Assembly (NCBI GenBank): GCA_046563655.1
Contig: CM102289.1
Span: forward strand, 1,426,001 to 1,490,000
Direction: 5' to 3'
DNA: 64,000 bases
Origin: Yuukianura sp. NJ FZ-2021
Lineage: Eukaryota
Position numbers and translations under genes: made by a program
Notes under the pieces: model-generated
The model's input: only the letters and a program-made list of their open reading frames with translations
What the model was told of the DNA's origin: nothing
The model's database searches: none
Shown: positions 3,716 through 64,000 of the stretch, piece after piece
Layout of the letters: every line of letters begins with the position of its first letter
Numbering within the stretch: the stretch's first letter is position 1

Positions 3716-4120
3716 CGCTTTTCAGCAATCTCAAGTGTTCACGTTTTCAACTTTTGCCAATTTTTCAGGAAAATTCTTACATTTGTATATACAAAAAAAA
3801 AGTTTTAAATAGCGTCGAATGATTATGCTTTTAAATACATTAACTTGCAGAACTTAAGCTATTTTTTTCTGATCTGATATTTTATTTATAAAGTTTAAAG
3901 TTTATAAATACTTATTTTGTTGGACAAAAATTTAATTTTTTCAAGTGCTTTTAAACACGCCTTTACCAAAAAATAGATTCGTCAAATCAAGCAGCACAAC
4001 AACACAACTCCAGGCTCAAAATTTAGTCACGCGTTCTGTTGTGGTATACTTTGGAAAATATCTTCAAAATACTAAAAGTACAACGTACTAAAACATTTGC
4101 TTATTGTTTCCTCAGTTACC

Positions 4121-6279
4121 ATGTATACCATACTATATTGTTGCTTAGTTTTATACACAGCTGTTAGTGAGTTAGTTATCAGTGAAGCATCACATATAGA
4201 CTTGAATCCATGGTTCAGTCCATTTGCTACAGAGTGCAACATTTACATAATCAACTTGAACGCAACAAATTTTGAACCACTTGAATTCCCCATCATTACG
4301 CAAAATTTGGTTTATAAAGTAGGAGTAGATTTTAGTAATACCTACATAAATCAAACCGGTTTCTACAATACGTTACTGCCGCATGAGAAAAAAATAGAAC
4401 CAGAAATATATTCAAAATTAAAATGTTATAATTACATTTTTCTAATTACATCATTTGGCACAACGCAACTGTCAGAGGACCAGCCCTTTCCGTTCCCAAC
4501 TAACCTACCATTCTGGTCCAGACTTTGGCGCAGAAACATGATGCTCATAGACGACTATAACTTTGCATTTAAAGAATTTGTGCTGGACAGATCCGCAATC
4601 CTGTCTTTAGTTGCTCCATACAATCCGAATATGATAGAAAATTGGCGTTTGCGGACCAGGCATTCACCTACCTATGACTATGTTGGAGTAGCTAAATTGG
4701 TAGTCTACGACCTACAAAAGGTCAAGAGATCAAACACCTACATAATCAGAGGAAGTGCGATAATTTGCACGGACTGTACTGAATGCAAATTCATGTTGCA
4801 ACCATTTCGTTATTCTCGAAACCTATCAAAAATTAAGGCACAGTGGGGACCGGTAGATCCAAAGCTCAAGTGGCACGTTGACCCCAAAATGCCACACAAT
4901 TTAAATTTTGCGCCTTACAAATACCAACTTGGCACTTGGGAACACATTGTGCTCAGGGCGATTACTAACAAGAGCATTGTTTGGACTGACCAACCGTGGT
5001 GTCCTGGCCAAAGAGGGCATCGTCCATCCGTTGAGTTTGGTTCAACATGTTACTCCCTCTTCCAAACTCATTACATCAAATTTCAATTTTTAACTTGTGA
5101 TGGATTTTTGGAAGAAGTTTCAGATTTCAACAGTTTGATTTCTGCATTTGATTTAAAAAGTTGGGCCATTTTGGGTGTGGCTATTTTTGCTATGGGCATA
5201 ACGGCTAATGTTGTGTTAAAAGTAAAAGGTAATAAATGTGATGGATTTGTAACAGTGTACTCTGCACTGCTGGAACACAGTTGGGATTCTGCAACTAATC
5301 CTCATGGGTTAAGTGCCATGTACTGGGTATCTAGCAGTATGTTGCTAACTTTAATTGTGGTTACCAATGGTTACAAAAGTTTCTTTACCGCTGACATAAC
5401 TTCACCAAGAAATCCGGAACTTATAACTCACTTTGGTCAAGTGATGGATAAAAACTTGACTATTTATGTCCGACCAGGTACTAGTGATATATCTGACTTC
5501 AAGTCAGACGCGCATAAAGCATATGTGAAAGTGTTGGAAGAAATGTATAACAAGCAAGACGAAAAAAGAGAAAAGCGAGGGCGAAAGAAAGTGGACCGGA
5601 TGAAAACAATAGATGAAAGGAGCTACCACTACCCCCTGTCAAGCTGTCCTGATTTTTACTTCCAATTTGTAGCTCCTCTACTAACAGGTTTTGGTATTCC
5701 TGTGTCAAACTGGAGAAAATTTGTTAGAGATAGCAACACCACTGTGATTCCAGCAACACTAAAACTAGTAGTACCAAAGTTGTTTGTGCCATGGGATGAA
5801 TTTGAATCTAAAAACATAAGTGATGATGACCCACTGACGCCATTGGTCAAAGACTGTAAAACGGCCTACGCTGATTGGTCGGATATAATCGACCACCAGT
5901 ATAGACTTTGGAAGATCTCAGGAGATAAGGTAGTGAAAGTCTTGCAAAAGGAACAGATAGTCTGGGTAACATAACTTATGGATGGCAATTTACTTTTGTG
6001 ACGGATCCTAATATACGGCCAAGATTGAAGTACATGGAACAGGCGGGAGTAATTGAATTTTGGAAAAATTTAGATGTAAATTTAAAATTTTTGAAAGAGT
6101 TACGACAACTTGAAGTTGCCAAATCTACTATAAAAGTGCTCGATCTGTATGATAAAATCAGAGTAGCCTTTTTTGTGTTTTTGAGTTTATTGCCACTACC
6201 ATTATTAGTTTTTGTTGTTGAGTACATTGTTGCCAATTTCCAGCGAATTTGTTGTACTAAGGTGCTCTGTGTTTTTTAA
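4121..6279 (+). pseudogene. Divergent intronless ionotropic receptor (IR/iGluR-like), frameshifted near 5930-5972
   Basis: Signal-like N-terminus, M1 (SAFDLKSWAILGVAIF), pore-like VYSALLEH, M3-like IVVTNGYKSFFTADITSP. The S2 end and M4 (YMEQAGVIEFW...AFFVFLSLLPLPLLVFVVE) lie in a different frame that is open from 5929. Confidence 0.7.
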
Positions 6280-6970: not shown

Positions 6971-8390
6971 TTATCGCGACTCGGACTCTTCAGAACTTTG
7001 AAATTGCACCAGCACCACGTTGTAAGTAACAACAGCGCTCAAAATCTAACAAATTCAAACACAAAAATTTAAAAAGTGTATGTTTTTTTGTTTTACTTTT
7101 TTGGCTTTGTTTTCTTACCGATGTCAGCAATGTTCGATTGATTTTGAAATAGCCAAATGCGGTTAGCTCAAATTTTGCAACGGCTGTCAACTGTTTCAGG
7201 TACGCCAAACTTTCTTGATCTGATACAGTCATTGGCGGTATCATTGAAGCACTCTTAAAAAGTAAATTGCTCTGAAAACAAGAAAAAGTAAAATTTAGTC
7301 AAAGATTTTACGACAAATTTTCATTTTATAACAAATTTAACAAAAAAGTGTTTTACATTTTTATAACAATTGCAAGTAAAGTTGGTTACCTTTGACGCAA
7401 GTCGTTCTCCGCAGTTAGTGAGCCACACCAGTTGCAAAATTATTGCAGCTATGCATGTAAAATTAATCAAAAGCAAAATAGGCAGCGCATTCAGAATGAG
7501 ATTCATTGTAGTACACACATGGAAAGTAGTCACAGTAAGCACAAAGGACGTGAAACAAAGCTCAATTACGAAAAATACTTGAGCTACATTTGCAAATTTT
7601 TCAAAAATTTCGTGCAGTTGGATTATTTCGGCTGCCACAAAATTGAAATCCGGTTGCGAAAACTTCTTACACCAAATTCCGGTTTTCAAATTTTTCAAAA
7701 TTTCACTCACTCGATGTTCCACATTCAACAAGTCTTGAATTTTGGTCAGACGTTGCTCTAATATTAGCGTTATGACCGAAATGAGTACAATGACAAAAAT
7801 ACTTGGACTTACTACTGAAATCCTAAAAAGTACAAAAATGGGGTTCAAAATTTTGAACGGAATGTGCACTCCATAAATTTCATAATTTGGAAAATTTAGT
7901 TCAAAACCTCCGATCCGTGCGAGTACATAAACTGACTCTAGTATAAAACCAACTGCAACAAGTAAAACAGGAAAAATTACGGTAACGAGTTCTTTTGCTA
8001 TAAAATTGCACCGAAGTTTGCTGTTTTTGATGTACTTGTCAATTGCACTAAACATTTGAATTGTACTGGGCAAAAAGTAAATGTAAGCAAAGTAGGTGAT
8101 ACTTACATAGGTCAAATTGGTCCAAAACAATATTTGAATAAGTTTAACATTTAGTTTGGAAATGAAATGGAGGGCATCAATTGTTTCATTGATGGCAGCA
8201 ATGTCAAATGGGACTATGAGTGGTGCAAATGAAATGGAAAAACTGAATACAAGGATTGTGCAAATTCCATTCACACTTTTCCAACTTAATTTGTAAATTG
8301 ACTTCCTAATGTCCAGTGGAAAAGGCCTATAAAAGCACCAAAATATACAGCAAATTTGAGCAAAGTGGAGTCAGAAACAGTGAAGCCCAT
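6971..8390 (-). pseudogene. Gustatory receptor copy A (exons 8390-7390, 7271-7119, 7045-6971) with a 4-nt deletion near 8315
   Basis: Multi-TM protein with FELTAFGYFKINR and the TM7 motif TYNVVLVQF. It has 6 nt between ATGTC and AAAAGG where the three paralogs have 10 nt, which breaks the frame shortly after the ATG. Confidence 0.8.
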
Positions 8391-9371: not shown

Positions 9372-10752
9372 TTACCGCAATTCGGACTCAGAACTCAGAA
9401 ACTGCACCAGGACCACGTTGTAAGTAACAACAGCGCTCAAAATCTGACAAATTAGAAAACATAAGTTAAGGAATGTATTTTTTTACCTTTGTGTTATATC
9501 CCTTTTGCTTACCGATGTCAGTAATGTTCGATTGATTTTGAAATAGCCAAATGCAGTTAGTTCAAATTTTGCAACTTTTCTTAACTGTTTCAAATATGCC
9601 AAACTCTCTTCGTCGTAGACCGTCATTGGCGGTATCAATAAAGCACTTTTGAACAGTAAATTGCTCTAAAATGAAGATCAAAATTTAATCAAACACATTG
9701 CCAAAACTTTTATAGTTTGTTAGTTAAACGTAGAATTTTGTTACCTTTGATGCAAGTCGTTCTCCACAGTTTGTGAGCCACACAAGTTTCAAAATTAGGG
9801 CACTCATGCTTGAAAAATTAAGCAAAAGGAAAATAGGCAATTCATTGAAAATACGATTGGCAGTGCTGCACACATGGAAAGTGCTTACGGTAAACAGAAA
9901 AGACGTGAAACAAAGTTCAATTACTAAAAATACTTGAACTCCAATTGCAAATTTTTCAAAAATTTTATGCAGTTGGATTATCTCGGCTGCCACAAAATTT
10001 ATATCCGTTGTCAAAAACCTTTTGTGCCACATTCCTGCGTTCAAATCTTTGCAAATTTCATTCACACCATGTTCTACATTCAACAACTCTTGAATTTTAG
10101 TCAGCCGTTGCTCTAATATTAGCGTTATAACAGAAATGAGTACAATGACAAAAATACTTGGACTTACTGCGAAAACAATAACTATTACAACTATTGTGTT
10201 TAAAATTTTGAACGGAATGTGTAACCCATAAATTTTATGATTTGGAAATTGCGTTTCAAAAGCTATTGTCCGTACAAGTATATAAAGTGACTCAAGTATA
10301 AAATTTCCAACAAAAAGAAGCAAAACTGGAAATATTGCTGAAACGAGTTCTTTTGATGTAAAATTGCATGAAAGTTTGCTGTTTTTGATGTACTTCTCAA
10401 TTGCACTAAACATTTGAATTGTTCTGGGCAAGAAATAGATGTAGGCAAAATGTGTGCTACTTATTGAAATCAGATTCGTCCAAAACATTACTCGAATAAG
10501 GAGTCCTTGCAAATCTGAATTTAATTTTGCTGCATCAATTTCTGCATTGATGGTGTCAAAGTCAAATGGGACTGTGAATGGTGCACAACAAATGAAAAAA
10601 CTGAATACAAAAATTGTGCAAATTCCGTTCAAACTAGTCCAACTTAATTCGTAAATTGACTTCCTAATGTTTTTGACAGGGCAAAGGCCTATACAAGCAC
10701 CAAAATAAGCAACAATTTTTAGCAAAGTAGACTCGGAAATACTGAAGCCCAT
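9372..10752 (-). CDS. Gustatory receptor copy B (exons 10752-9745, 9665-9513, 9443-9372)
   Basis: Intact multi-TM ORF, 153-nt exon 2, C-terminus ILSAVVTYNVVLVQF (Gr TYhhhhhQF motif). Confidence 0.88.
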
Positions 10753-11310
10753 TTTACACAAAATACAAAGCGTTAAAAAATTATTCCTTTAGATTCGATT
10801 GTAAACTATTCCGAAATTTCATGACAATGCAAAACCAAAAAGCAAATTAAATTTTCTTTCCAACTTTTCTGTATTTTATATATTATAGATTTTTTTAGCA
10901 CATGAGTTCGCACATACCCGTGTTAATATTAAAATTACGGTAAAAGGAAAACATCAAATGTTCAAATGTTTGTGAAATTTTGGGGAAAAAAAGTTATAAC
11001 AATGGACTTTTGCCGTTTTTGTGCCAAAAACCAACACTCAAGTTAAATACTATCTCAATTTGCAATTTCACTTTCCGCTTTCATGAAACTTGTTTTTCGT
11101 ATTCTTGAATGTTGGACACAATAGCATCTTCAATCAATAATATAAAAACAGTGTTTGACGGTCCATAAATTTTGAAAACAACTTTTCGAAATTCAATAAA
11201 AAGTGAATTAATTAATTCATCGCTTACAATTTATGAAAATTGCTTTTAATACAAATTTGAATATTAGAAATACTTTTAATATATGCTGCATCTTCATTCG
11301 TTATCTGATA

Positions 11311-17626: not shown

Positions 17627-19035
17627 TTAGGGCGACTCCAACTCCTCAGAACTTCGAAATTGCACCAGCACCACGTTGTAAGTAACAATTGCGCTTAAAA
17701 TCTAGTAAATTTAAAAATACAAAACTTAAGCTTGGTTGTCGTTTTGTTTTTGTTTTTGGTTAATACGTTCTTACCGACGTCAGTAAACTTCGATTGATTT
17801 TGAAGTAGCCAAATGCAGTTAGCTCAAATTTTGCAATTTTTCTCAGCTGTTTCAAGTACGCCAAGCTGTCTTGATCAGATACTGTCATTGGTGGTATCAA
17901 CAAAGCACTCTTAAATAGTAAATTGCTCTAAACAACAGAAAAAAAAATTTAATCAAAAATTTTGCAAATAATTTTTTATAACAATAACTTATTTTTTATT
18001 ATATCATTTAAATGTAAATAGTTTGGTTACCTTTGATGCAAGTCTTTCTCCACAGTTAGTGAGCCACACTAGTTTTAATATTATTGCACCTATGCTTGTA
18101 AAATTAATCAAAAGCGAAATAGGCACATTCAGAATAAGATAAGCTGTACTACACACATGGAAAATGCTGAGGGTAATCAAAAAAGAAGTAAAACAAAGTT
18201 CAATTACCAAAAATACTTGAACTCCATTTGCAAATATTTCAAAAATTTCATGCATTTCGATTATTTCGGAAGCAACGAAATTAAAATCCGGTTGCAAAAA
18301 CTTTCTATACCAAATTCCGGTTTTTAAATTTTTGCAAATTTCACTCACTCGAGGCTCTACATTCAACAACTCCTTGACTTTAGTCAAGCGTTGTTCTAGT
18401 ATTAGGATTGTGAAAGAAATGAGTACAACGACAAAAATACTTGGACATATTGCTAAAATCCTAAAAACTACAAAAATTGTGTTTAAAATTTCGAACGGAA
18501 TGTGCAATCCATGAATTTTGTAGTTTGGAAAACTGGTTTCAAAAGCAATGGTTCGGTCGATGACATAAAGTGACTCAAGTATGAAACTTCCAACAAAAAA
18601 TAGCAAAACTGGAAAAATTGCGGTAACGAGTCCTTTTGGTGTTAGATTGCATCGAAGCTTGCTGTTTTTGCTGTACTTGTCAATTGCACTAAACATTTGA
18701 ATTGTACGTGACAAAAAATACATGTACACAACGTGAGTTGTACTTGTGTAAATCAAACTGGTCCAAAACATTACCTGCATTAGTTGCTCACTTAAATGTG
18801 AATTTAACTTGACTGAATCAATTTCTGCATTGATTGTGGCAATGTCAAATGGGACTATGATTGGCGCACAAGAAATGAAAAAACTGAAAACAAGAATTGT
18901 GCAAATTCCATTCAAACTGTTCCAACTTAAGTGGTAAATTGACTTCCAAATGTCTATAACTGGGAAAAGGCCTATAAAAGCACCAAAATATGCAATAATT
19001 TTTAGCACAGTAGAGTCAGAAAGACTAAAACCCAT
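17627..19035 (-). CDS. Gustatory receptor copy C (exons 19035-18031, 17927-17775, 17701-17627)
   Basis: Intact paralog with the same exon structure and TYNVVLVQF motif. Confidence 0.88.
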
Positions 19036-20076
19036 TTCAAACAAAAAATGCAAAGCGTTCAAAAATTTAGATTTGAGCCGAAATTCTGTGACAATGAAAA
19101 AACTCAAAAGGAAATTGAATTTTTGGCCAACTTTTCGTGTATTTTATATAGTACAAATTTTTGTAGCACTTGGAACAGTCACTCTGCTTAATGTGACAAT
19201 TACTGTAAAAGGGAAGCGGCAATGTCAAATTTTGTGAAATTTTGAAAAAAAAAGTAATGCCGTGTTGGCGTGAAAAACCAACACTCAAGTTGAATACTAT
19301 GTCAATTTACATCATACATTACGTTTTTTTCTTGTTTTGAAAATTTGAGTTTTGTATTTTTGAATGTCACCACTCACGAATAATATTCAAAAGCGTTTCT
19401 CTTTCAACAAATTTTGAAAACCACTTTTCGAATTTCATTAAAAACTGAATTGGTATATTCATTGCTTAGAACTCGTGGAAATTTTTTTTTAAGTTTTTTT
19501 TGAAGACAAAATTGAACTTCAAAAACAGTTTTAATGTTTGCCAGCCACTTAGTAAAGCCTTTTGCACAAATGCTTTACTAAGAGTTATGACGTTACTATA
19601 CGTTTAGCCTTTGCTTTGATAATCTCCTGTTCAATTACTTTCAAGCTTTACAGAAAACCGACACGTTTTTAACCACCCTTAACCTTTCTAAACAATGAAC
19701 AAAGAAACGCTTTACAAAAAAGTATTAAAACCTTAAATTGTTTAACCTTGAAAAGGTGTCAAAAAATTTTCAACTATTCCTGCTGAAAAATCTGCTGTTT
19801 ATAAGCAAAATAGAAATTGGTAGTAGTCTGTCTGTGTACAGTTTTTGTGAAAAACCTCTTTTGAAAAATATAGAAAGGCTTACGAACAAAGGTAAGATTT
19901 AAAAAAAAACTGAAAAGTCGAATTTTGGAACTGTTTTTCTGATACCCAATTATTATTTTTATTGGCCAATATACAAATAAACTAGAATCCTAACATTAAC
20001 AACCTTACAAAATTTGCTTAAGTGGTCGGGAACTCCGATTCCCGAATTTTTGTGTTTGGTAAATTGTTTGCAAGTA

Positions 20077-22026: not shown

Positions 22027-23412
22027 TTATTCTCCTTCAGACTCAGAACTGTGAAATTGCACCAGCACCACGTTGTAAGGAACAACAGCACTCAAAATCT
22101 AACAAATTTAAAAATTAAACTTAAGCAGTGCATGGTTTCTGTTCTGTATTTGTGTTGTTAAATTTATCCTTACCGATGTCAGTAATGTTCGATTGATTTT
22201 GAAATAGCCAAATGCAGTTAGTTCAAATTTTGCAACTTTTCTTAACTGTTTCAAGTAAGCCAAACTCTCTTGGTCTGATACAGTCATTGGCGGTATCAAT
22301 ACAGTGCTGTTAAAAAGTGAATTGCTCTAAAACGAAATAAAAACAAAATTTTACAACGAAGTGTTTACAACATTATTTTTTAAATGTAAGTAGTTTTTGG
22401 TTACCTTTGATGCAAGTTTTTGTCCGCAGTTAGTGAGCCATACTAGTTTCAAAATTAGTACAGCTAAGCTACCGAAATTAATTAGAAGCAGAACAGGCAA
22501 CACGTTGTAAATAAGATTCATTGTGCTACATACATGAAAAGTTGTCACAGTAAGCAGAAAAGAAGTAAAACAAAGTTCAATTACAAGAAATAATTGAACT
22601 CCATTTGCAAATTTTTCAAAAATTTGATGCAGGTGGATTATTTCAGTTGAGATAAAATTGAAATCCGGTTGCAAAAACTTTTTATACCAAATTCCAGATT
22701 TCAAATTTTTGGAAATTTCAGTCACACGATGCTCCACATTCAACAGCTCCTCAACTTTAGTTAGCCGTTGCTCTATTATTAGTGTTATGAAAGAAATGAG
22801 TACGATTACAAAAATACTTGGACATGTGACTAATTGCATAAAAACTACAACTAAAGTGTTCAAAATTTTGACCGGAATGTGCAATCCATAAAGTTCATAG
22901 TTTGGAAAAATTGATTCAAAAATTAATGTTCGGTCGACGACAAAAATGGACTCAAGTATAAAACTTCCAACAAAAAGCGGCAAAACTGGAAATATTGCTG
23001 AAACAAATTCTTTTGGTGTCAAATTGCATCGAAGTTTGCTGCTTTTGATGTACTTTTCAATTGTACTAAACATTTGAATTGTTCTGGGCAAACAACACAT
23101 GTAGGCCAAGTATGTGCTAGTTATGTAGGCCAAATTGGTCCAAAACATTAACAAAAGAAGCTGCTCGTGTAGATCTGAATTTAATTTGGCTGCATTAATT
23201 TCTGCCTTCACGGCCGCACTGTCAAATGGGACTACGAGTGGTGCACAACAAATGACACAACTGAAAACAAAAATTGTGCAAATTCCATTCAAACTCTTCC
23301 AACTTAATTTGTAAATTGACTTTCTGATGTCCACAACCGGGAAAAGAGCTGTAAAAGCACCAAAATATGCAATAGTTTTTAGCAAAGTGGAGTCAGAAAG
23401 ACGGAAACCCAT
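22027..23412 (-). CDS. Gustatory receptor copy D (exons 23412-22405, 22326-22174, 22098-22027)
   Basis: Intact paralog; TM7 motif reads PYNVVLVQF. Confidence 0.85.
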
Positions 23413-24395
23413 TTTACGAAAAAAGGAAAGCGTTAGAATAGTTTCCGCAGATTTGATATTAAACAGTTGCGGAATTTTGTGACAATGCAAAAGCCAAAAG
23501 AAAAATTAAATTTTTCTCCACTCACTTTTCTTTATTATATATATTACAAATTTTTTAACACTCGAATTTACATTTACTCTGCATAATGACATTAGGGTGA
23601 AAGGAAACCGCCTAAGAATCAACGTTTGGTGAAATTTTGGAAGAAAGAGTTATAACAATGGACATCTTTTTTTCATCAAAACCCAACACTTAAGTTGGAT
23701 ATTTCAATTTACAAATTCACTTTTCGAAATTTGTGTGTTTTTTCTTGTAACGGTTGAATGTTTATTTTTGTATTTCTGTTCGTTTTAGACACATTGTCGT
23801 TTTTGGTAAATTCATGCAGAAACAAGGTAAGTCTTTCTATAAATTTCAAAAACAACTTTATAAATCTGTATAAAAATTGAATTAGTAAATTCATGACATT
23901 ACAGTTGACGGAAAACTTGAAAAAATACAGATGCTGTACAGTGTTCAGCGCAAATTGAAAATTTTCATTTTGAAATCTATTGTGTGAAAATTCTTTTGTG
24001 AATTTTAGACAAGAGACGTAGAACTAAATTGAACTAAATTTTTTCTACAGACGCCATACTCATCAACAAAACTCCATTCCTCTGTACTTATAACCAAGAA
24101 AGACACAATGCCTTACAAAACATCGTCCACTTGATGATATTTTGTGTTTTATTTGTGTAAACTTTCACTTTCCTTTGATTGACATCTAAGGACGAAACTG
24201 GTTTATGATTTCCAATTCTGACGAAAGAAGAATGCTGTAACCACTTCTGCTCTTGCAACTGATCATCCATTTCAAGAAATTTAGTTACTTTGTTAGTATA
24301 AATTTAGTTACTTTGTTACTTTGAAATTACTTTGAAATTTAGTTACTTTGTTTGTATAAATTTTACAAGGTAAATAAGAAAATTAAAAGTTCACA

Positions 24396-52021: not shown

Positions 52022-53791
52022 ATGTCCACGGGATCAACCCTGATCCGGTTCCTGATTGGATCAATTCTGGTGGTAACTTGTACAACTTTTGCGTCGTCCC
52101 ACCAAGAAAGCCCCACCGGAAACGACGTTTTTCTGGACACATTACAGGCGGAAGTAGAGGGCAACGTTAAAGAAGCTCAGCAGGAATTGGTCACTGAAGC
52201 CAAAGCAGTCGCTGCCGCTACTGAAAAATATGCCAAGGTCAAGCTTGCTCAGAACATCTTTCGGGTGTGTTTTTTTTTTTTTTCAAAAATTTAAAGCATA
52301 ATTTTCGAAAAAATTTTTTTTGGTCGAAAGGTCAATGACCTCATCTTGTCTGGATTTTTTTTCAGGCCCTGAGAGTCTTGGTACTAAAGGAGCTGGAGCA
52401 GGTTCCGTTGCAACTGCGTATGCGTCAACCACGTCAAGAAGAAGCAGAAGAGTCACCGTCAAGCGGATCTGGCGACGATGAAGACACAAACGACACTTCG
52501 GGAGGCAGTTCGGCCGAAACGGCATCCACGACGAAACGAACTGTGCCGCTCATTCCGGTCGTAAGTGACCTGTACCGAATTTTTAGGCTTTTGCAATTTT
52601 TTTTTGTTTACGAACCTTGGTCGGTTTTGCCTTTGCAGTTGGCGGGAATTTTGAAATCGGTGCTCGGAGGAGGGGAAAACGCGACAACACAGCCACTGAA
52701 CGTCACTCATACGATCCAGAACCTTCTGTTTCCACTTGGAAATCCGTTTCAAGGAGTCCAATCGCTGCTAAACCGTCGTCNNNNNNNNNNNNNNNNNNNN
52801 NNNNNNNNNNNNNNNNNNNNNNNNNNNNNNNNNNNNNNNNNNNNNNNNNNNNNNNNNNNNNNNNNNNNNNNNNNNNNNNNAAACCGTCGTCGTCCCACCG
52901 CTGCTCCAACAACGGTAATCAAGTACTATCCAGTACCGGTTTACCCGACGACTGAAGCCCCACCACCGACTAAAGCCACCACTCCACTGCTCCGCCTGGT
53001 GGGGCGTGAAAATATCCGCGTCAGACGTCATGCTTCTCCTCTCGCTCCGCGTAAGTAAGAACCGACAAAGATTTTGCAAACAACGCTGAATTTATCCGCG
53101 CGTCGATAAATTCACAACTTTTGAAAACCAAAATTAAGTGAGTTTTAATTTTTCAGGAGCCGAGAGTGATTTGAACCGACAAGTTCCTGCCGCGCCACCA
53201 TTTCAAAATCCCGCCGCTTCTTATGTCTATGCTCCCGCTTACGTTAATTCAAATAAACAAAAAATCACGGAATTCCCGCCATCCGGTACCACCGACTCTC
53301 CTATGCTAATCTACGCTCCGAAACATGTTGTCGGTAGCGCTTATGCTCCACTTCACGTCAACCCGCCAACACAAGATTCGGTTTTACCGGGAAATTCAAA
53401 ATTAACCGCCGACACGACCACTCGAGCTCCAGTAAAACACAGACCACAAGAACTTTCGCTTCCGGTTTTTGCCGAAGCATTTCCCGATCCGACAACGGTT
53501 GCTCCTCCCACCGTAAATTTCGTTCCCACGGTAACGAATCTTCCGAAAGCTGCCGTTCCGGTGACTACGATCGTTCCGTCGGTATCGGGCGGCACTAAAA
53601 ATTCGGAGGGAAATTCAAATACGACCACAACGACTCCAGGCCTGATCTACGTTGATTCCTTGGCTCGCGATGTCCAAAGCAGTTTTGACGGTCTCGTCAA
53701 AAATTTACCGGACATTTTGAAGGGAGCGAAGGAGGCAATTGGACTACTCGCCAATCTCCGAGAAATTTTTGGAGAGGAAGACGACGCTTAG
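52022..53791 (+). CDS. Secreted Pro/Thr-rich low-complexity protein (exons 52022-52237, 52366-53050 spanning the N gap, 53157-53791)
   Basis: Signal peptide MSTGSTLIRFLIGSILVVTCTTFASS, phase-consistent splice sites, P/T/A-rich body, amphipathic C-terminal helix. Confidence 0.8.
52781..52880. other. 100-N assembly gap with an 11-bp overlap on both sides
   Basis: aaaccgtcgtc at 52770-52780 and 52881-52891. Confidence 0.95.
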
Positions 53792-58840: not shown

Positions 58841-59744
58841 TTATAGGTCGTAGTTCGTCTTGAATTGGTAGTTTTGAGCTGCTGCGGAAAGTTGTGGCTC
58901 CAGAATATGCACCAATTCTTGAACGGAAGGCAGGCGACCGCTTTCAAGTTTTGACCAGACTTGGACATCTACGAAAAAAAAATTAGAATCATTGACACTT
59001 ATTGATTGATTATAGGATATCTTAATTTAAACTGGAGTACCATTAAGATATATTTCGAAAGCACCAGTGCTCATTAACTGCGACTCAAGGAAATTGCTTA
59101 TAAAGAAGGCCATAAGACAAGCGTAGATTTTGTTCTGTCGCATCCACTCGATTCTACTTGCCGGAATGTGAAGGAATTGAAGAAGTGCAAACTGGTTGAA
59201 AACTAAACTTCCTATCACCACAAACTTAAGGATTCCCTGCAACAGTAATTAAATTAGATTCAACTTGTCGTATTTTGTTGTCACCAACTAAACATTGAAT
59301 CATCTGCTCCTTACTAGTACTTGGGCTAATATTTGTCTCCATGTCGCTGGTGGGTAGTTGCTTCCTTCCATGTAAAGGTCAGGAAATCTATGCGTCAGTA
59401 CTTGAGCAAACTGCGCATAGGCATTCCGGTACCCTCAAGAGGAACTGAAAAATGAAATCAGAATATTCAACGTTAGCACGAGATCTTTGTTTTACGGTAG
59501 CAGTAGCAGTCGTGAGCAAACCCAGAGATTTTTACAGTCAACCGATTGCTTACCAGTAGAGGAATTTAAGCTCGGGTACGTCCGGAGCTGATTTTGTTAC
59601 TGAAACCCCCAGTTCATCTCCAATTGCCGCATGATCACCATGTTCGCCTGCATGTCCATCGTCAGGTGCCATAGCCTGGTACACTTCCCGGAGTGTAAGA
59701 GCGATGGCCAGCATGATTATATAGTGTTGTGTCTCGAGAGCCAT
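58841..59744 (-). CDS. SelT: Selenoprotein T with Sec (UGA at 59437-59435); exons 59744-59554, 59444-59315, 59236-59041, 58968-58841
   Basis: LKFLYCSS-UGA-GYRNAYAQF...FPDLYMEGSNYPP...NKIYACLMAFFISNFLESQLMSTGAFEIYLNDVQVWSKLESGRLPS, the SelT/Rdx family signatures. Confidence 0.93.
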
Positions 59745-60372
59745 TACGAAAGCTTCGTCAACACTGCTGCCGCTGCTCGCCTAATGAAGAACAAGATTCA
59801 ATGGGCATTAGATTAAAAATGTAATGTAATGGCTGGATAGTTAGCGTTAGTATGCTATGCTGAACAGACAAGTTGAGACAATCAATGTAACTTTACCTAA
59901 AAGAGGAAAAATACGAGGTTAAGGTTCGTCACCATCAACTTCTACAGTAAAAATGTCCGTGTTACACTGAAAATTAAAGTTAGTTAACTAAAACTAAAGG
60001 ATGAACATAATTTTGTAAATGATCGTCTGCGGTTAATTACAATTAACCCAATTAAAACAATTAAATTATTCAATTAATCACCCAATCCGATCCCGATCAA
60101 ATCAATCGGTGCGCCCTACCTTCAAGTTTCAATTCGATTGAATGTGCCCGTGTCGTGTCCCCCTCCTCGTCCTCTCCAGTTAAAATGAAGTAATTGTAGA
60201 GGTTACACACATTTTTTCACCCATACAGCTAGACGATAGCATATGGACAGTCGTCGAGTATTTAATTAAAATTAAACTATTAAAAATTATTTATAGGACC
60301 AACACAAAAATATTAAAAAATCATATTTAATCACGTTTCAATTAAAATATTCATTCATGAATTGATCTAATC

Positions 60373-61059
60373 TTAAGATTTCCGTTGAAGTAGCATGAAA
60401 TTGGTCATACTGTCGAACATGTAAACTCCAGGATCAGTTAATTTAGAATTAATTAGTGGCTTAACCATTTCATTTAAAGTTTCTAAATCATTTTGTAGCT
60501 GTTCACAGTTGGACACAGACGGCTCGAAATTCCTGTACCCATACGCAAGCGTTATATGAAATCCCGGGAATATGCTGTCCGCAGTCTCATAAACGGCGGT
60601 CAAACGTTGTCGGACGTGTATCATCTTTTGGTGGTAATCATCGTGCAGGGTAAGGTTTAGTTTCAGAACAGCGAGTTTGTGACCATCCACGGAACTTCGG
60701 AATGTCATGTCCTTGATTCCACTGACAGATGCCGGCAACTCCGACAGAATCGCTGAAGCTTCTTCGTTTTGCTTAGCAAGTACTTCGTCTGGTAACCATC
60801 CTTCGACGGGAACGGTCACCGCAGAATCCTGCTCGAGCCAACGCTGCACTGGAGGTATCAGTGGACCTTTCTTTGTGGTATAAACATTAAAAATGGTCAT
60901 ATGGTAAGACTCATGCGGTAGCGGCGAAAAGTACTCCGCAAGGGACGAGGTCCGAATGAAATTTTCAATCCTAATCCCAAGATCTTCCGGATGCTCAAGC
61001 ATTACGAGAGTTGTGTATCCATAAAACGGTAAATACTTCCCATTGTCATCCAACTTCAT
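60373..61059 (-). CDS. 2H-phosphoesterase (DUF1868-like), single coding exon, 228 aa
   Basis: Two HxT motifs (LPHESYHMTIF and FHITLAYGY); N-terminus KLDDNGKYLPFYGYT; upstream GT-AG intron at 61192-61118 in the 5' UTR. Confidence 0.8.
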   Translation of the reverse strand: MKLDDNGKYLPFYGYTTLVMLEHPEDLGIRIENFIRTSSLAEYFSPLPHESYHMTIFNVYTTKKGPLIPPVQRWLEQDSAVTVPVEGWLPDEVLAKQNEEASAILSELPASVSGIKDMTFRSSVDGHKLAVLKLNLTLHDDYHQKMIHVRQRLTAVYETADSIFPGFHITLAYGYRNFEPSVSNCEQLQNDLETLNEMVKPLINSKLTDPGVYMFDSMTNFMLLQRKS

Positions 61060-61793
61060 CGTGTGCGTGCCTTTCGAATGAATTCGGCCGCCTGAATAAC
61101 CAAAGTACTCCAATTACCTGACAAAGAATTGCTTCATAAGAACAAGTGAACATAATTATTAATTAGTATAATCAAGAAATGTCAGAACTTACCAATACCT
61201 AGATATTAAAGCGTAGATTCTAATCAGAACGAAAACAGTTAGTCAAGGGTTTGCAGTTTTACACCACTACGTCTGGAATTGGAATTGCCAAGAGTTAGGC
61301 TAATCAGCGGAATCGGTAGAAAACGAGAATCAGCGGCGCAGTCTTAACTGCAAACAAAAATAGGCTGACGTAAGGCAAAAGTGCATACGTGTAAAATACG
61401 GTTCAAATATATTTTAAAATTATAATATATATTTCACAACATGTAATAATTCATACATATAGTCATACAACATACACATACGTATATATATGTCATCTGT
61501 GTAATAAATGCACGGCGGTATGAAACAACGAAATTGCAAAAACATATTGTGTCCTTTTCAAGCAGCATAACGCTAATGCATTAAAAAAAATTAATTTTTA
61601 ATCTATTTAAGTACCTTGAATTTACGTAAAGAAATTAAAGCCAAGGTTCGTAAAGAAACACATTGTTTATTCTACACTGTAGTAAATACCATTTGTTGTA
61701 TTTCTTTTGTCAAAGCACCTTGTTAAAAACTTACGAATAGTTCCAGTTACTAATAATTATATTAATGAAGTTTTAATGATGGTACGCCGGTGA

Positions 61794-64000
61794 TCAGTGT
61801 TGAAAGGCCTCTTGGAAAGCATGTTTGAGAATAGAAAATGTTGGTCTAGCTTCGGGATCTGTCAGCCAGCATCTCATCATGAAGTTGTACCTGTCAATGT
61901 GGAAAATGTTTCTTTTACAAAGTAAATTCAAAATTTGAAACTTAATTTTAAATATGAAGATTTTGGTTTTTGTTGTACACTTCTTCCGAGGCATAAGGTG
62001 GTTTAGCCATTCGATATCCCTCTGTCAACATCTTCCATGAACTGCAATCCCAGTGTGGAAGGCCAGGATATGGCGGTTGACCCAAGCTGTAAATTTCCCA
62101 CAATGTTACGCCGTAACTCCACACATCAGATTTCACAGAAAATTCCAAATCTCTCAAAGATTCAATTGCCATCCATTTTAGCGGAAGTGGACACTAAATT
62201 TTAAATTTTCATTTTTCAAAATTCAAGCGCCATTTTCCAAATTTTAAGAATAGTTAACCTCAAGCCGTTGGACATAAACCGTGTAGTCGCTCAGTTGTTT
62301 TGACAAACCGAAATCTCCTACTTTTGCTGTCAGGGACTCTGTCAACAGAATATTGCGGGCTACAAGCAAGCGTAAGTAAAAAATCAAAATAAATTCAAAA
62401 CAGTATCATTTTCATAGTTGATTTTTTTTTCATAAAATAAAGTTATAGTGGGGTTAGTACTACACAAAAAGTAAATTCAAAGTTATGATTCAGAAATTTA
62501 CCCGCCAGATCTCCATGCACAATCTGAAAATATGAACAACAAAAAACCGCATTTACATCAGAATTTGAAGTTTTCGTTTTTTTAAACATTTTATTTCAAC
62601 GTTTTTTACTGAATGTCATACGTTTTTGTCGCTAAGAAATTCCATTCCGGAAGCAATTTCAGCAGCCCACCTCAGTAAGTCTTTCGAGGAAATTTTCTTT
62701 ACCGAAACATTTTGGTAGTCAACGACACTAAATTTGATGTAAAATTTAGTTAACTTATTGTTAACTACAATTAAGTTAATTTAGTTGTCATTCAAAAAGT
62801 AAAGTATCAGCATCTTTACCTGTGACGTGACGGTGTGTACCGTCCATGCGCAGCGAGATGATTGACAAACTGGTCTTTGTATTTTCGTAAATATTTTAAA
62901 ACGTTTCCATTTGCACAGTACTCATAAATTAAATAAACTTCCCCTACAAATTAAGATGGCACCTAATTTTCAATTTCAATTACAATTCAAATTAGAACTT
63001 CAAAAATCTTACGTTTTTCTATATTTTGAGTACATCCGCCAATTAAGTTGACAATATGTTCATGTTGCCCCACGAAACAACAAATTTTGAGTTCTGACAA
63101 CAACACCTTGAGGTACGAAATGTCAGCAAATTTTTTGACTGTTTTGATTGCAATGTACGACTTGTCCAACTTCCCTCTCGTTACTTTTCCAAATTGCCCA
63201 TCGCCCAACACTTTGGATTCTGTAAAGAAAATTTCGAAAAAAAAGAAAAGAAAAAAAAAGAAGATTTTTATGAAAAGCAGTATTTGGAAATATTTAGTTT
63301 TATATTATACCAAATTTTATTTTTGATTTTGGAATTTCAAACTCTGTGTTGTATGGGTAGAAGAGCGGAGAATTTTCATTTTGCATTTGTTTATCTCCGT
63401 GAGTGAATTCGTGAATTTCCTCTTCCGTTAATTTTTGAATTTCGCGGTATTTGGCGCGTAATTTGAGGTAAACGACAAATCCAATTCCAAGCAAAACGAT
63501 TAGAACTAGAATTGGAAAGCCTATAACTACAGCTATGTGAAACCTCCCGGATGAATCTGTTAATTTCAAAAAAAAAAATTCAAATTTTTTTTTTTTTTTT
63601 TTGATTTCTTTGTAAAATTTTGAAATTTAAGAAAGCATACGTGTTATCGTGTGGTTGAGTTGCTTTTTTTCGTAAAATGAAATATCGGCTTCACATGTAT
63701 ACGTTTCAACCGAACCAGGATTTTTAGTAATTTTTAAAACCGAAGTTATTGCACTGCCGACTATTGTGCTGTTCCAGTGATCAGCATGTACTGCCTACAT
63801 AGACAAAAATGTCAACAACAATAATGTCAACAACAATAATGTCAACAACATAATGATCAACCCTGTGTAAGTATCGAAATTTATGTGTTACAATATCATT
63901 TTTCCTCCATGTAATCACAGGTACCGGTTCACCGGTTGCCGTACAATGCAGTTCAGTCACGCTGTTACCCTCGGTAACCTCTGTTATGTTCAAAATAGAG
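61794..64000 (-). CDS. Receptor tyrosine kinase (Ig domain, TM, PVR/VEGFR/FGFR-like kinase); 5' part beyond the window
   Basis: Ig ([17 protein letters not shown]...YTCEA), TM ([24 protein letters not shown]), [58 protein letters not shown]. Confidence 0.9.

Follow-up and report, generated by a model that had tools for sequence, protein, structure and literature searches.

A gene on the minus strand of a 64,000-nucleotide stretch of Yuukianura sp. NJ FZ-2021 (assembly GCA_046563655.1, contig CM102289.1, positions 1,426,001 to 1,490,000) encodes a 2H phosphoesterase of the DUF1868 family and is a gene shared between viruses and hosts. The whole stretch is called the window here and all positions are window positions. 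The translated protein (P0001) falls into one clade with iridovirus proteins, and the gene lies between two intron-bearing host genes with an intron of its own in the 5′ untranslated region (UTR). Five public runs from two studies cover the stretch, four of which (X1 to X4) were examined as assembled contigs. The features of the gene, each with its evidence, are:

60373..61059, minus strand: DUF1868-type 2H phosphoesterase coding sequence (CDS), 228 codons plus stop (P0001); open reading frame (ORF), PF08975, AlphaFold2 model and match to structure 2FSQ
60895..60903, minus strand: first catalytic motif, H53-M54-T55; motif and family alignment
60550..60558, minus strand: second catalytic motif, H168-I169-T170; motif and family alignment
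61060..61117, minus strand: 5′ UTR portion of the coding exon, with an in-frame TAA at 61116-61114; sequence, and an X4 contig covering 60776-61105
61118..61192, minus strand: GT-AG intron of 75 nt in the 5′ UTR; GTAAGT at the donor end, CAG at the acceptor end, skipped in an X4 contig
61193..61230, minus strand: first exon, non-coding, with 38 nt or more before the splice; the X4 joint has 38 letters on its shorter side

The minus-strand frame is open from stop to stop over 60373..61113. Its first ATG, at 61059, gives a protein of 228 amino acids with the stop codon at 60373-60375; the 228-codon frame is unbroken and the CDS needs no intron. An earlier description of this DNA, the sequence-only reading, had proposed an intronless CDS of 228 amino acids amid intron-rich neighbours, two HxT motifs and two characteristic N-terminal motifs, and all three proposals hold. 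The ORF, together with spliced X4 contigs across the neighbouring SelT-like and kinase genes, agrees with the first. The HxT motifs are HMT (residues 53-55) and HIT (168-170); both histidines are kept in all 52 rows of the family alignment and both threonines in 49. The N-terminal motifs G.YLPFYGYT and LP..SYHMT are conserved across the same alignment, with G7 and G14 in 50 of the 52 rows and P48 and Y52 in 51. A tblastn search found no second copy of the gene in the window, and the single 100-N gap of the window (52781-52880) is located far from it.

Family assignment and predicted fold

The protein matches PF08975 (2H-phosphodiest, DUF1868) with 25.2 bits against a gathering cut-off of 21 (E = 1.8e-5), the match being limited to residues 2-61, or profile positions 1-63 of 116. 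NCBIfam assigned no family, and a single-sequence search of the PDB gave no match. Atu0111 (2FSQ) is matched at E = 1e-8 by a profile of 30 relatives, in an alignment that takes in both HxT motifs. The AlphaFold2 model built on this 30-relative alignment has a mean predicted local distance difference test score of 91.8 and a predicted template modelling score of 0.88, and places the HxT motifs on the predicted strands E53-61 and E167-174. In a Foldseek search with this model, 2FSQ was the top structure (E = 3.2e-11, template modelling (TM) scores 0.62/0.61 over 234 columns), followed by Usb1, LigT, archaeal 2′-5′ ligase-like proteins, AKAP18, a plant cyclic phosphodiesterase (CPDase), Acb1 and a penguinpox cyclic GMP-AMP (cGAMP) phosphodiesterase (PDE).

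A closer kinship to the LigT/CPDase or Usb1 branch was considered and rejected, since the structures of the LigT/Usb1 branch match more weakly than 2FSQ (4h7w, E = 6.7e-5; 5ldm, E = 1.9e-4; against 3.2e-11). Neither LigT_PEase nor 2_5_RNA_ligase2 of Pfam matched at E ≤ 1. The Foldseek matches to Acb1 (7t27, E = 2.9e-3, TM 0.31/0.45) and to the penguinpox cGAMP PDE (9bkq, E = 8.2e-3, TM 0.39/0.43) are weak and rank below Usb1 and LigT; a second Acb1 structure, 9q2g, is a weak match at the level of the sequence profile (E = 0.049). On fold, motif and profile, the window protein is thus a member of DUF1868 and of the 2H superfamily. This is the assignment that the sequence-only reading had made and for which it had proposed a PF08975 search; the score above the gathering cut-off and the best fold match, 2FSQ, both bear it out.

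A DUF1868 structure has been solved since 2006. A search of the open literature, supplements aside, gave no paper on DUF1868 or PF08975 and no assigned function. The family is absent from the passages of PMC9503650 that concern iridoviruses and 2H phosphoesterases, and the abstracts found for iridescent viruses and cGAMP phosphodiesterases contain nothing relevant. Iridoviral insertions in fish are treated in a preprint (10.1101/2025.04.19.649669), the relevant passages of which deal with other sequences than this gene.

Relatives in viruses and animals

Against 1,835,955,588 representative sequences, HMMER found 201 proteins at E ≤ 1e-3, 39 at E ≤ 1e-10 and 4 at E ≤ 1e-30, the best match being 41% identical (E = 5.7e-36). 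An organism name is attached to 8 of the 30 top matches that were looked up, the remainder being metagenome or run-assembly contigs. Aquatica is the only arthropod among these eight, and two Bradysia proteins were found separately. The named animal relatives are from Bradysia coprophila, B. odoriphaga, Aquatica leii, Owenia fusiformis (two proteins), Aplysia californica, Plakobranchus, Lymnaea and Elysia. Further named relatives are DH26_gp015 of Chloriridovirus anopheles1 and a protein of a 'Spirochaetia bacterium'. The window protein lacks an N-terminal hydrophobic extension, and its relatives from Owenia, Bradysia and Aplysia are extended at the N-terminus. In both Bradysia proteins (P0004 and P0005), the extension is a hydrophobic stretch of about 30 residues, and H-M-G replaces the second HxT motif. 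From their sequences, the Bradysia homologues may be membrane-anchored and catalytically altered.

On the viral side, DH26_gp015 of the Anopheles minimus iridovirus (P0164) has 228 amino acids, is 39% identical to the window protein and is identical to a protein encoded in the 163,023-bp Anopheles minimus iridovirus record (L002). Among the 13 candidate stretches of the viral collection, ten encode relatives: this record, a 212,482-bp record, two iridovirus-like contigs and six metagenome-assembled genomes (MAGs) of giant viruses. At one of the viral loci (L001), the neighbouring genes encode a topoisomerase II, two Bro-N proteins, a NIF phosphatase and an SNF2 helicase; no capsid gene was matched in the 25-kb fragment of that record. 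Among viral structures, the DUF1868 protein A0A068QL33 of Armadillidium vulgare iridescent virus matches best (TM 0.87/0.90, root-mean-square deviation 1.5 Å, 36% identity), and an ascovirus and a Terrestrivirus gave weaker matches. As judged from sequence comparison, the apparent partner lineage of the window gene is that of the invertebrate iridoviruses and other giant viruses.

Phylogeny

A quick tree was made from 96 rows, namely P0002-P0082 and 18 further matches, with proteins shorter than 190 or longer than 300 amino acids dropped, plus seven locus translations. For a careful tree, 52 of these rows were retained: those of the nearest clades and, for an outgroup, a single group of giant-virus MAGs. 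The window protein has P0007 as its sister (support 90/95) and falls into a 21-row clade with a support of 100/99 in the careful tree and 98 in the quick tree (Shimodaira-Hasegawa-like approximate likelihood ratio test). Apart from the window protein, this clade holds the group of the 212,482-bp record, the Anopheles minimus iridovirus group, the loci L004 and L011 (the latter from the 'Spirochaetia bacterium' assembly), Aquatica and Bradysia; the branching order within it is poorly resolved. It is nested in a 33-row clade (97/93) together with Owenia, a gastropod clade and proteins from megabase contigs. The gastropod clade consists of the four heterobranchs Aplysia, Plakobranchus, Elysia and Lymnaea (100/100), with the two sacoglossans as sisters. 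The phylogeny that the sequence-only reading had proposed as a check consequently places the window protein with the iridoviruses, and the tree shows that the arthropod and iridovirus copies belong to one lineage.

Linkage to host genes and transcription

The 2H gene is flanked by two multi-exon genes, and all three are on the minus strand:

58841..59782, minus strand: SelT-like multi-exon gene, downstream neighbour, with an in-frame TGA at the CxxU position (59435-59437); spliced X4 contig
61794..64000, minus strand: receptor tyrosine kinase, multi-exon, upstream neighbour, runs off the window; PF07714 on two exons, introns skipped in X4

The exons of the SelT-like gene lie at about 59554-59782, 59314-59444, 59041-59235 and 58841-58968. 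PF07714 was matched on the kinase exons 61948-62193 and 62987-63304, and the last kinase exon ends at 61794. A 1075-nt contig of X1 joins the inside of the CDS to this last exon (60925-61995), and a contig of X3 links the CDS with SelT exons 1 and 2 and part of SelT intron 2 (59298-60876). X1, X2 and X4 possibly share their sample with the assembly; X3, which belongs to the other study and carries another organism label, is independent of it. Depth is alike over the 2H gene and its flanks in X1 and X2. These observations support a real host gene that is physically linked to its neighbours. A chimeric contaminant join, which the sequence-only reading had named as a finding that would overturn its proposal, is not what the runs contain, as contigs of two studies bridge the 2H gene to host genes.

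Contigs of X4 skip five stretches of the neighbouring genes that are bounded by CT..AC, namely 59236-59313, 59445-59553 and 58969-59040 in SelT and 61884-61971 and 62194-62258 in the kinase gene. X4 behaves as cDNA, because these introns are kept in the other three runs. At the 2H gene, one X4 contig (depth 4.8) skips 75 nt with CT..AC ends, which with the cut moved by +4 are exactly 61118-61192; another skips 71 nt at the same site (61118 to 61190). Further X4 contigs cover the CDS at 60417-60650 and 60776-61105. Upstream, there is X4 depth in the bin 61140-61256 and none in the bin 61257-61373, and stretches such as 60087-60320 and 61257-61607 are without X4 cover. The contigs inform on splicing, as opposed to transcript ends or levels. 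None of the runs listed for the stretch is on record as RNA, and it is from the cDNA-like contigs of this one run that we conclude that the 2H gene is transcribed and loses its 5′ UTR intron by splicing. Both the GT-AG intron described in the sequence-only reading and the splice across 61118-61192 that it had proposed to look for were recovered in this way. As the in-frame TAA at 61116-61114 directly follows the splice acceptor, the upstream exon is unable to lengthen the CDS.

The GC content of the CDS is 0.44 (0.46 at third codon positions), compared to 0.33 and 0.32 in the flanks and 0.36-0.52 in nine host exons. The observation of the sequence-only reading that the CDS is more GC-rich than its flanks is correct as such, but the contrast was rejected as a foreign signature: because the CDS falls inside the range of the host exons, this is an ordinary difference between exon and intergenic DNA. 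Pfam searches of 42 window ORFs gave ABC-transporter and tyrosine-kinase domains only, all in multi-exon genes, and no viral hallmark domain. A tblastx comparison of the whole window with viral loci totalling 143 kb matched nothing but the 2H CDS, and within the loci compared the window appears to hold no multi-gene viral insertion.

Compared to the window, X3 differs at four listed sites of the CDS (C185W, S183P, P46A and one silent) and at 14 sites of the 590-nt intergenic stretch below it. A 905-nt contig of X1, with a depth of 92, matches the 5′ half of the CDS (60776-61113) at about 91%, with 30 differing letters and 6 gaps, and resumes at 61426 after a skip of 312 nt. This contig is a divergent haplotype or allele, or else a paralogue whose upstream region differs.

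A unit that includes the gene was assembled head-to-tail in X3:

59298..61547, no strand assigned: 2.25-kb unit of the 2H gene and the first two SelT exons; head-to-tail in X3 at about ten times the flank depth

It is contained in a 2285-nt contig with a depth of 54.8, which runs through 59298-60876 and then 60847-61547 with a 30-nt overlap and includes the joint from 61547 to 59298, at which it closes on itself; the flanking X3 contigs have depths of 2.6-8. Neither X1 nor X2 has excess depth over the unit. Back-splicing was rejected as the source of the joint, since 59298 is inside SelT intron 2 and splice dinucleotides are absent. The unit could be a tandem array, an extrachromosomal circle or an assembly artefact.

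Origin of the gene

The gene was probably captured by an arthropod from an iridovirus-like virus and domesticated afterwards; we infer both the direction and the domestication. An arthropod ancestor would have acquired the 2H gene, alone and without introns, from a large DNA virus resembling iridoviruses, and the gene would have inserted between the kinase gene and SelT. There it would have come under a host promoter and gained an intron in its 5′ UTR, to become the transcribed host gene of today. Capture is favoured by the very patchy occurrence of the gene in arthropods, by the interleaving of arthropod and viral rows in the best tree, by the viral architecture of the window protein, which has no N-terminal extension, and by the intronless CDS. 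Domestication is favoured because host features that need time are present, namely the spliced 5′ UTR intron and the host-like composition.

It is possible, although we think it unlikely, that this is instead an old animal gene, inherited vertically from early protostomes, kept in gastropods, annelids and a few arthropods and lost in most insects, of which the iridoviruses took a copy from arthropod hosts. The single gastropod clade with its sister sacoglossans, the two copies in Owenia and the position of the iridovirus/insect clade within the animal-holding 33-row clade would all fit such a history, as would the host-like GC content, the spliced 5′ UTR intron and the expression seen in the cDNA-like X4 contigs. 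The sequence-only reading had held that orthologues across animals, grouping by species phylogeny, would refute horizontal transfer. This is partly the case, with homologues in four gastropods, an annelid, a firefly and two sciarid flies. In the best tree the arthropod copies are interleaved with viral rows, and each of the 200 bootstrap trees needs 4 changes of the label 'animal' to account for 6 rows. Extreme patchiness also speaks against long vertical descent, with Aquatica, the two Bradysia species and the window organism as the sole named arthropods among the matches examined from about 15 billion proteins. The same is true for the form of the gene itself: at 228 amino acids and without an N-terminal hydrophobic extension the product is viral-like, unlike the N-terminally extended proteins of Owenia, Bradysia and Aplysia, and its CDS is intronless amid intron-rich neighbours.

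Several points weigh against a capture from viruses. Rooted on the giant-virus MAGs, the nesting within an animal-containing clade equally fits an old animal gene captured by viruses. In the approximately unbiased (AU) test, one clade of the window protein, Aquatica and Bradysia was rejected (p = 0.012), but this group was named after the tree had been seen and forces out sisters that are possibly arthropod. When P0007 and P0011/P0024/P0034 are included, a group likewise chosen after tree inspection, the single clade costs 14.2 log-likelihood units and is not rejected (p = 0.207). At about 40% identity, even the closest of all sequences is too distant to name a donor. When the viral collection was scanned with P0001 and P0007, neither a closer viral donor nor a viral source for P0007 emerged, and this sister of the window protein comes from a 2-kb contig and has no relative in that collection. 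With regard to domestication, three of the four CDS differences of X3 change a residue, which gives no clear sign of purifying selection, the counts being too few. In addition, X4 carries the label 'DNA?' and its RNA nature is read from its joints, and the literature searched holds no biochemical datum on any DUF1868 protein. The horizontal acquisition proposed in the sequence-only reading is consequently likely, short of proof: the shared clade with iridoviruses and the patchy occurrence in arthropods agree with it, while a single arthropod clade is not rejected and the direction and number of transfers are left open by the trees.

The remaining explanations are far less probable. Atu0111, the best match among solved structures, is bacterial, and many bacterial DUF1868 clusters are present in Pfam and the Atlas, which would fit a direct acquisition from bacteria and the 'mainly bacterial' kinship suggested in the sequence-only reading. 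The close relatives of the window protein turned out to be iridoviral, giant-viral and invertebrate, however, and the named bacterial DUF1868 proteins (Pseudomonas, Undibacterium, Musicola, Ruminococcaceae) align over 9-32% of the query only and branch apart as a group of their own in the 96-row tree. When 185,579 prokaryote species, each represented by one genome, were scanned for a pattern, a single close locus was returned, L011 (BNUT01000009.1), with a GC content of 0.23. Its neighbours match the L004 helicase (48%), the L001 SNF2 helicase (40%) and an Anopheles minimus iridovirus ORF (28%), and the same assembly encodes a major capsid protein of nucleocytoplasmic large DNA viruses (PF04451, 191.8 bits, 459-aa frame). 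Because its neighbours match iridovirus-like contigs and its assembly encodes this capsid, the L011 contig is, by all appearances, viral material in a bacterial bin, and a public 'bacterial' assembly is hereby flagged as carrying iridovirus-like contigs (L011 and G002:C166:5119-5721). A bacterial donor is accordingly very improbable. Still harder to credit is that viral or other contaminant DNA was misjoined into the assembly and that there is no host gene. The viral nearest relatives and the lack of an intron in the CDS would be expected of a contaminant; the bridging contigs from two studies (X1 and X3), the spliceosomal intron removed in X4, the similar depth over gene and flanks in X1 and X2, the host-like GC content and the absence of other viral-like sequence in the window would not.

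Predicted activity and significance

The 2H fold catalyses, in LigT, CPDase, Usb1, AKAP18 and Acb1, an acid-base attack by a pair of histidines on a phosphodiester next to a ribose 2′-OH. In the predicted structure of the window protein, H53 and H168, each with its following threonine, would face each other across the cleft between two lobes. Judging from the fold and the invariant residues, this pair may serve as general acid and base on a phosphodiester beside a ribose 2′-OH. Candidate substrates are a 2′,3′-cyclic phosphate end, a 2′-5′ or 3′-5′ linked nucleotide or a cyclic oligonucleotide. By analogy, 2′,3′-cyclic phosphate ends of RNA or nucleotides are the substrate to which we would give the most weight, at somewhat below an even chance; they are ranked first because the solved relatives after Atu0111, Usb1 and LigT, act on RNA ends. 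Cyclic-dinucleotide immune messengers, as cleaved by Acb1 or the poxvirus cGAMP phosphodiesterase, are a more tentative suggestion. They come second because the immune-messenger nucleases are more distant structure matches, and are worth testing because the family is enriched in invertebrate large DNA viruses. Some other substrate is as tentative a candidate as these messengers.

A more speculative and rather improbable view, again by analogy, is that DUF1868 might be a viral counter-defence nuclease against a nucleotide messenger, such as the cGAMP isomers of cGLR-STING signalling. It would then have been captured repeatedly by arthropods, and the host copy might tune or terminate the host's own signalling. 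If this were true, the 2.25-kb unit of X3, at about ten times the depth of its flanks, would reflect a conflict gene whose copy number has risen in a different population or in a sister taxon.

As presented here, a sub-lineage of DUF1868 is common almost exclusively to invertebrate iridoviruses, other giant viruses and scattered invertebrate genomes, and at least one arthropod copy is, according to the cDNA-like X4 contigs, an expressed and spliced host gene. This places DUF1868 among the genes that pass between viruses and their hosts, a class to which poxins and other immune nucleases belong. The main value of the finding is that an orphan enzyme family is tied to the invertebrate iridoviruses; a function found for the window gene would extend to the whole family.

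Other features of the window

The in-frame TGA of the SelT-like gene (59435-59437, minus strand) is located in exon 59314-59444 in the context SS-TGA-GYRNAY, which is the CxxU position of the selenocysteine. This sequence context suggests that the gene is a true selenoprotein gene. A scan of the window with Rfam at gathering score gave no match and no selenocysteine insertion sequence (SECIS) element.

Five long single-exon ORFs (349-632 amino acids) without a Pfam match were observed at 4076-5974 on the plus strand and at 7321-8370, 9724-10788, 18004-19143 and 22351-23505 on the minus strand. The largest, with 632 amino acids (4076-5974), was placed beside ionotropic-receptor-like clusters of arthropods in the Atlas (score 0.97), which marks the host as an arthropod. 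An ABC-transporter exon of the window, used as a query, scored highest with a firefly protein, through several domain matches at 48-53% identity, and matched no close species. Based on their sequences, these ORFs may form a cluster of divergent chemoreceptor genes. Finally, a stretch of about 36 nt at 61641-61677, located between the kinase gene and the 2H gene, recurs in numerous contigs of all four runs. The sequences around it are unrelated, with loose ends on both sides, and depth peaks in the bin 61608-61724; the stretch is a short dispersed repeat.

Comparison with known systems

Atu0111 of Agrobacterium tumefaciens, the structural founder of PF08975, is the best match to the window protein among solved structures (TM 0.62). 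However, the two share only 17% identity, and the bacterial members are outside the group of viruses and animals. Acb1 and the penguinpox cGAMP PDE have the superfamily fold and the histidine pair in common with the window protein, and both are virus-borne and act in host conflict. Their likeness to it is weak (TM 0.31-0.39), and the comparison is one of how the protein may work and not of family membership.

The animal DUF1868 genes, such as LOC119079761 of Bradysia coprophila and RN001_014225 of Aquatica leii, can be aligned with the window protein over the full length at 33-37% identity. None is close enough for evident orthology, with Bradysia and Aquatica in the 21-row clade and the gastropod and annelid proteins in others. 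The iridovirus proteins DH26_gp015 and A0A068QL33 resemble the window protein in length class (228 and 221 amino acids), in the HxT pair and in the G.Y.PF.GYT motif; they are 36-39% identical to it, their predicted structures superpose with TM scores of 0.87-0.90, and they belong to the same clade (100/99). Unlike the iridovirus copies, from which it differs with an identity of at most about 40%, the window gene is part of an arthropod chromosome, where it sits between spliced host genes and has its own 5′ UTR intron.

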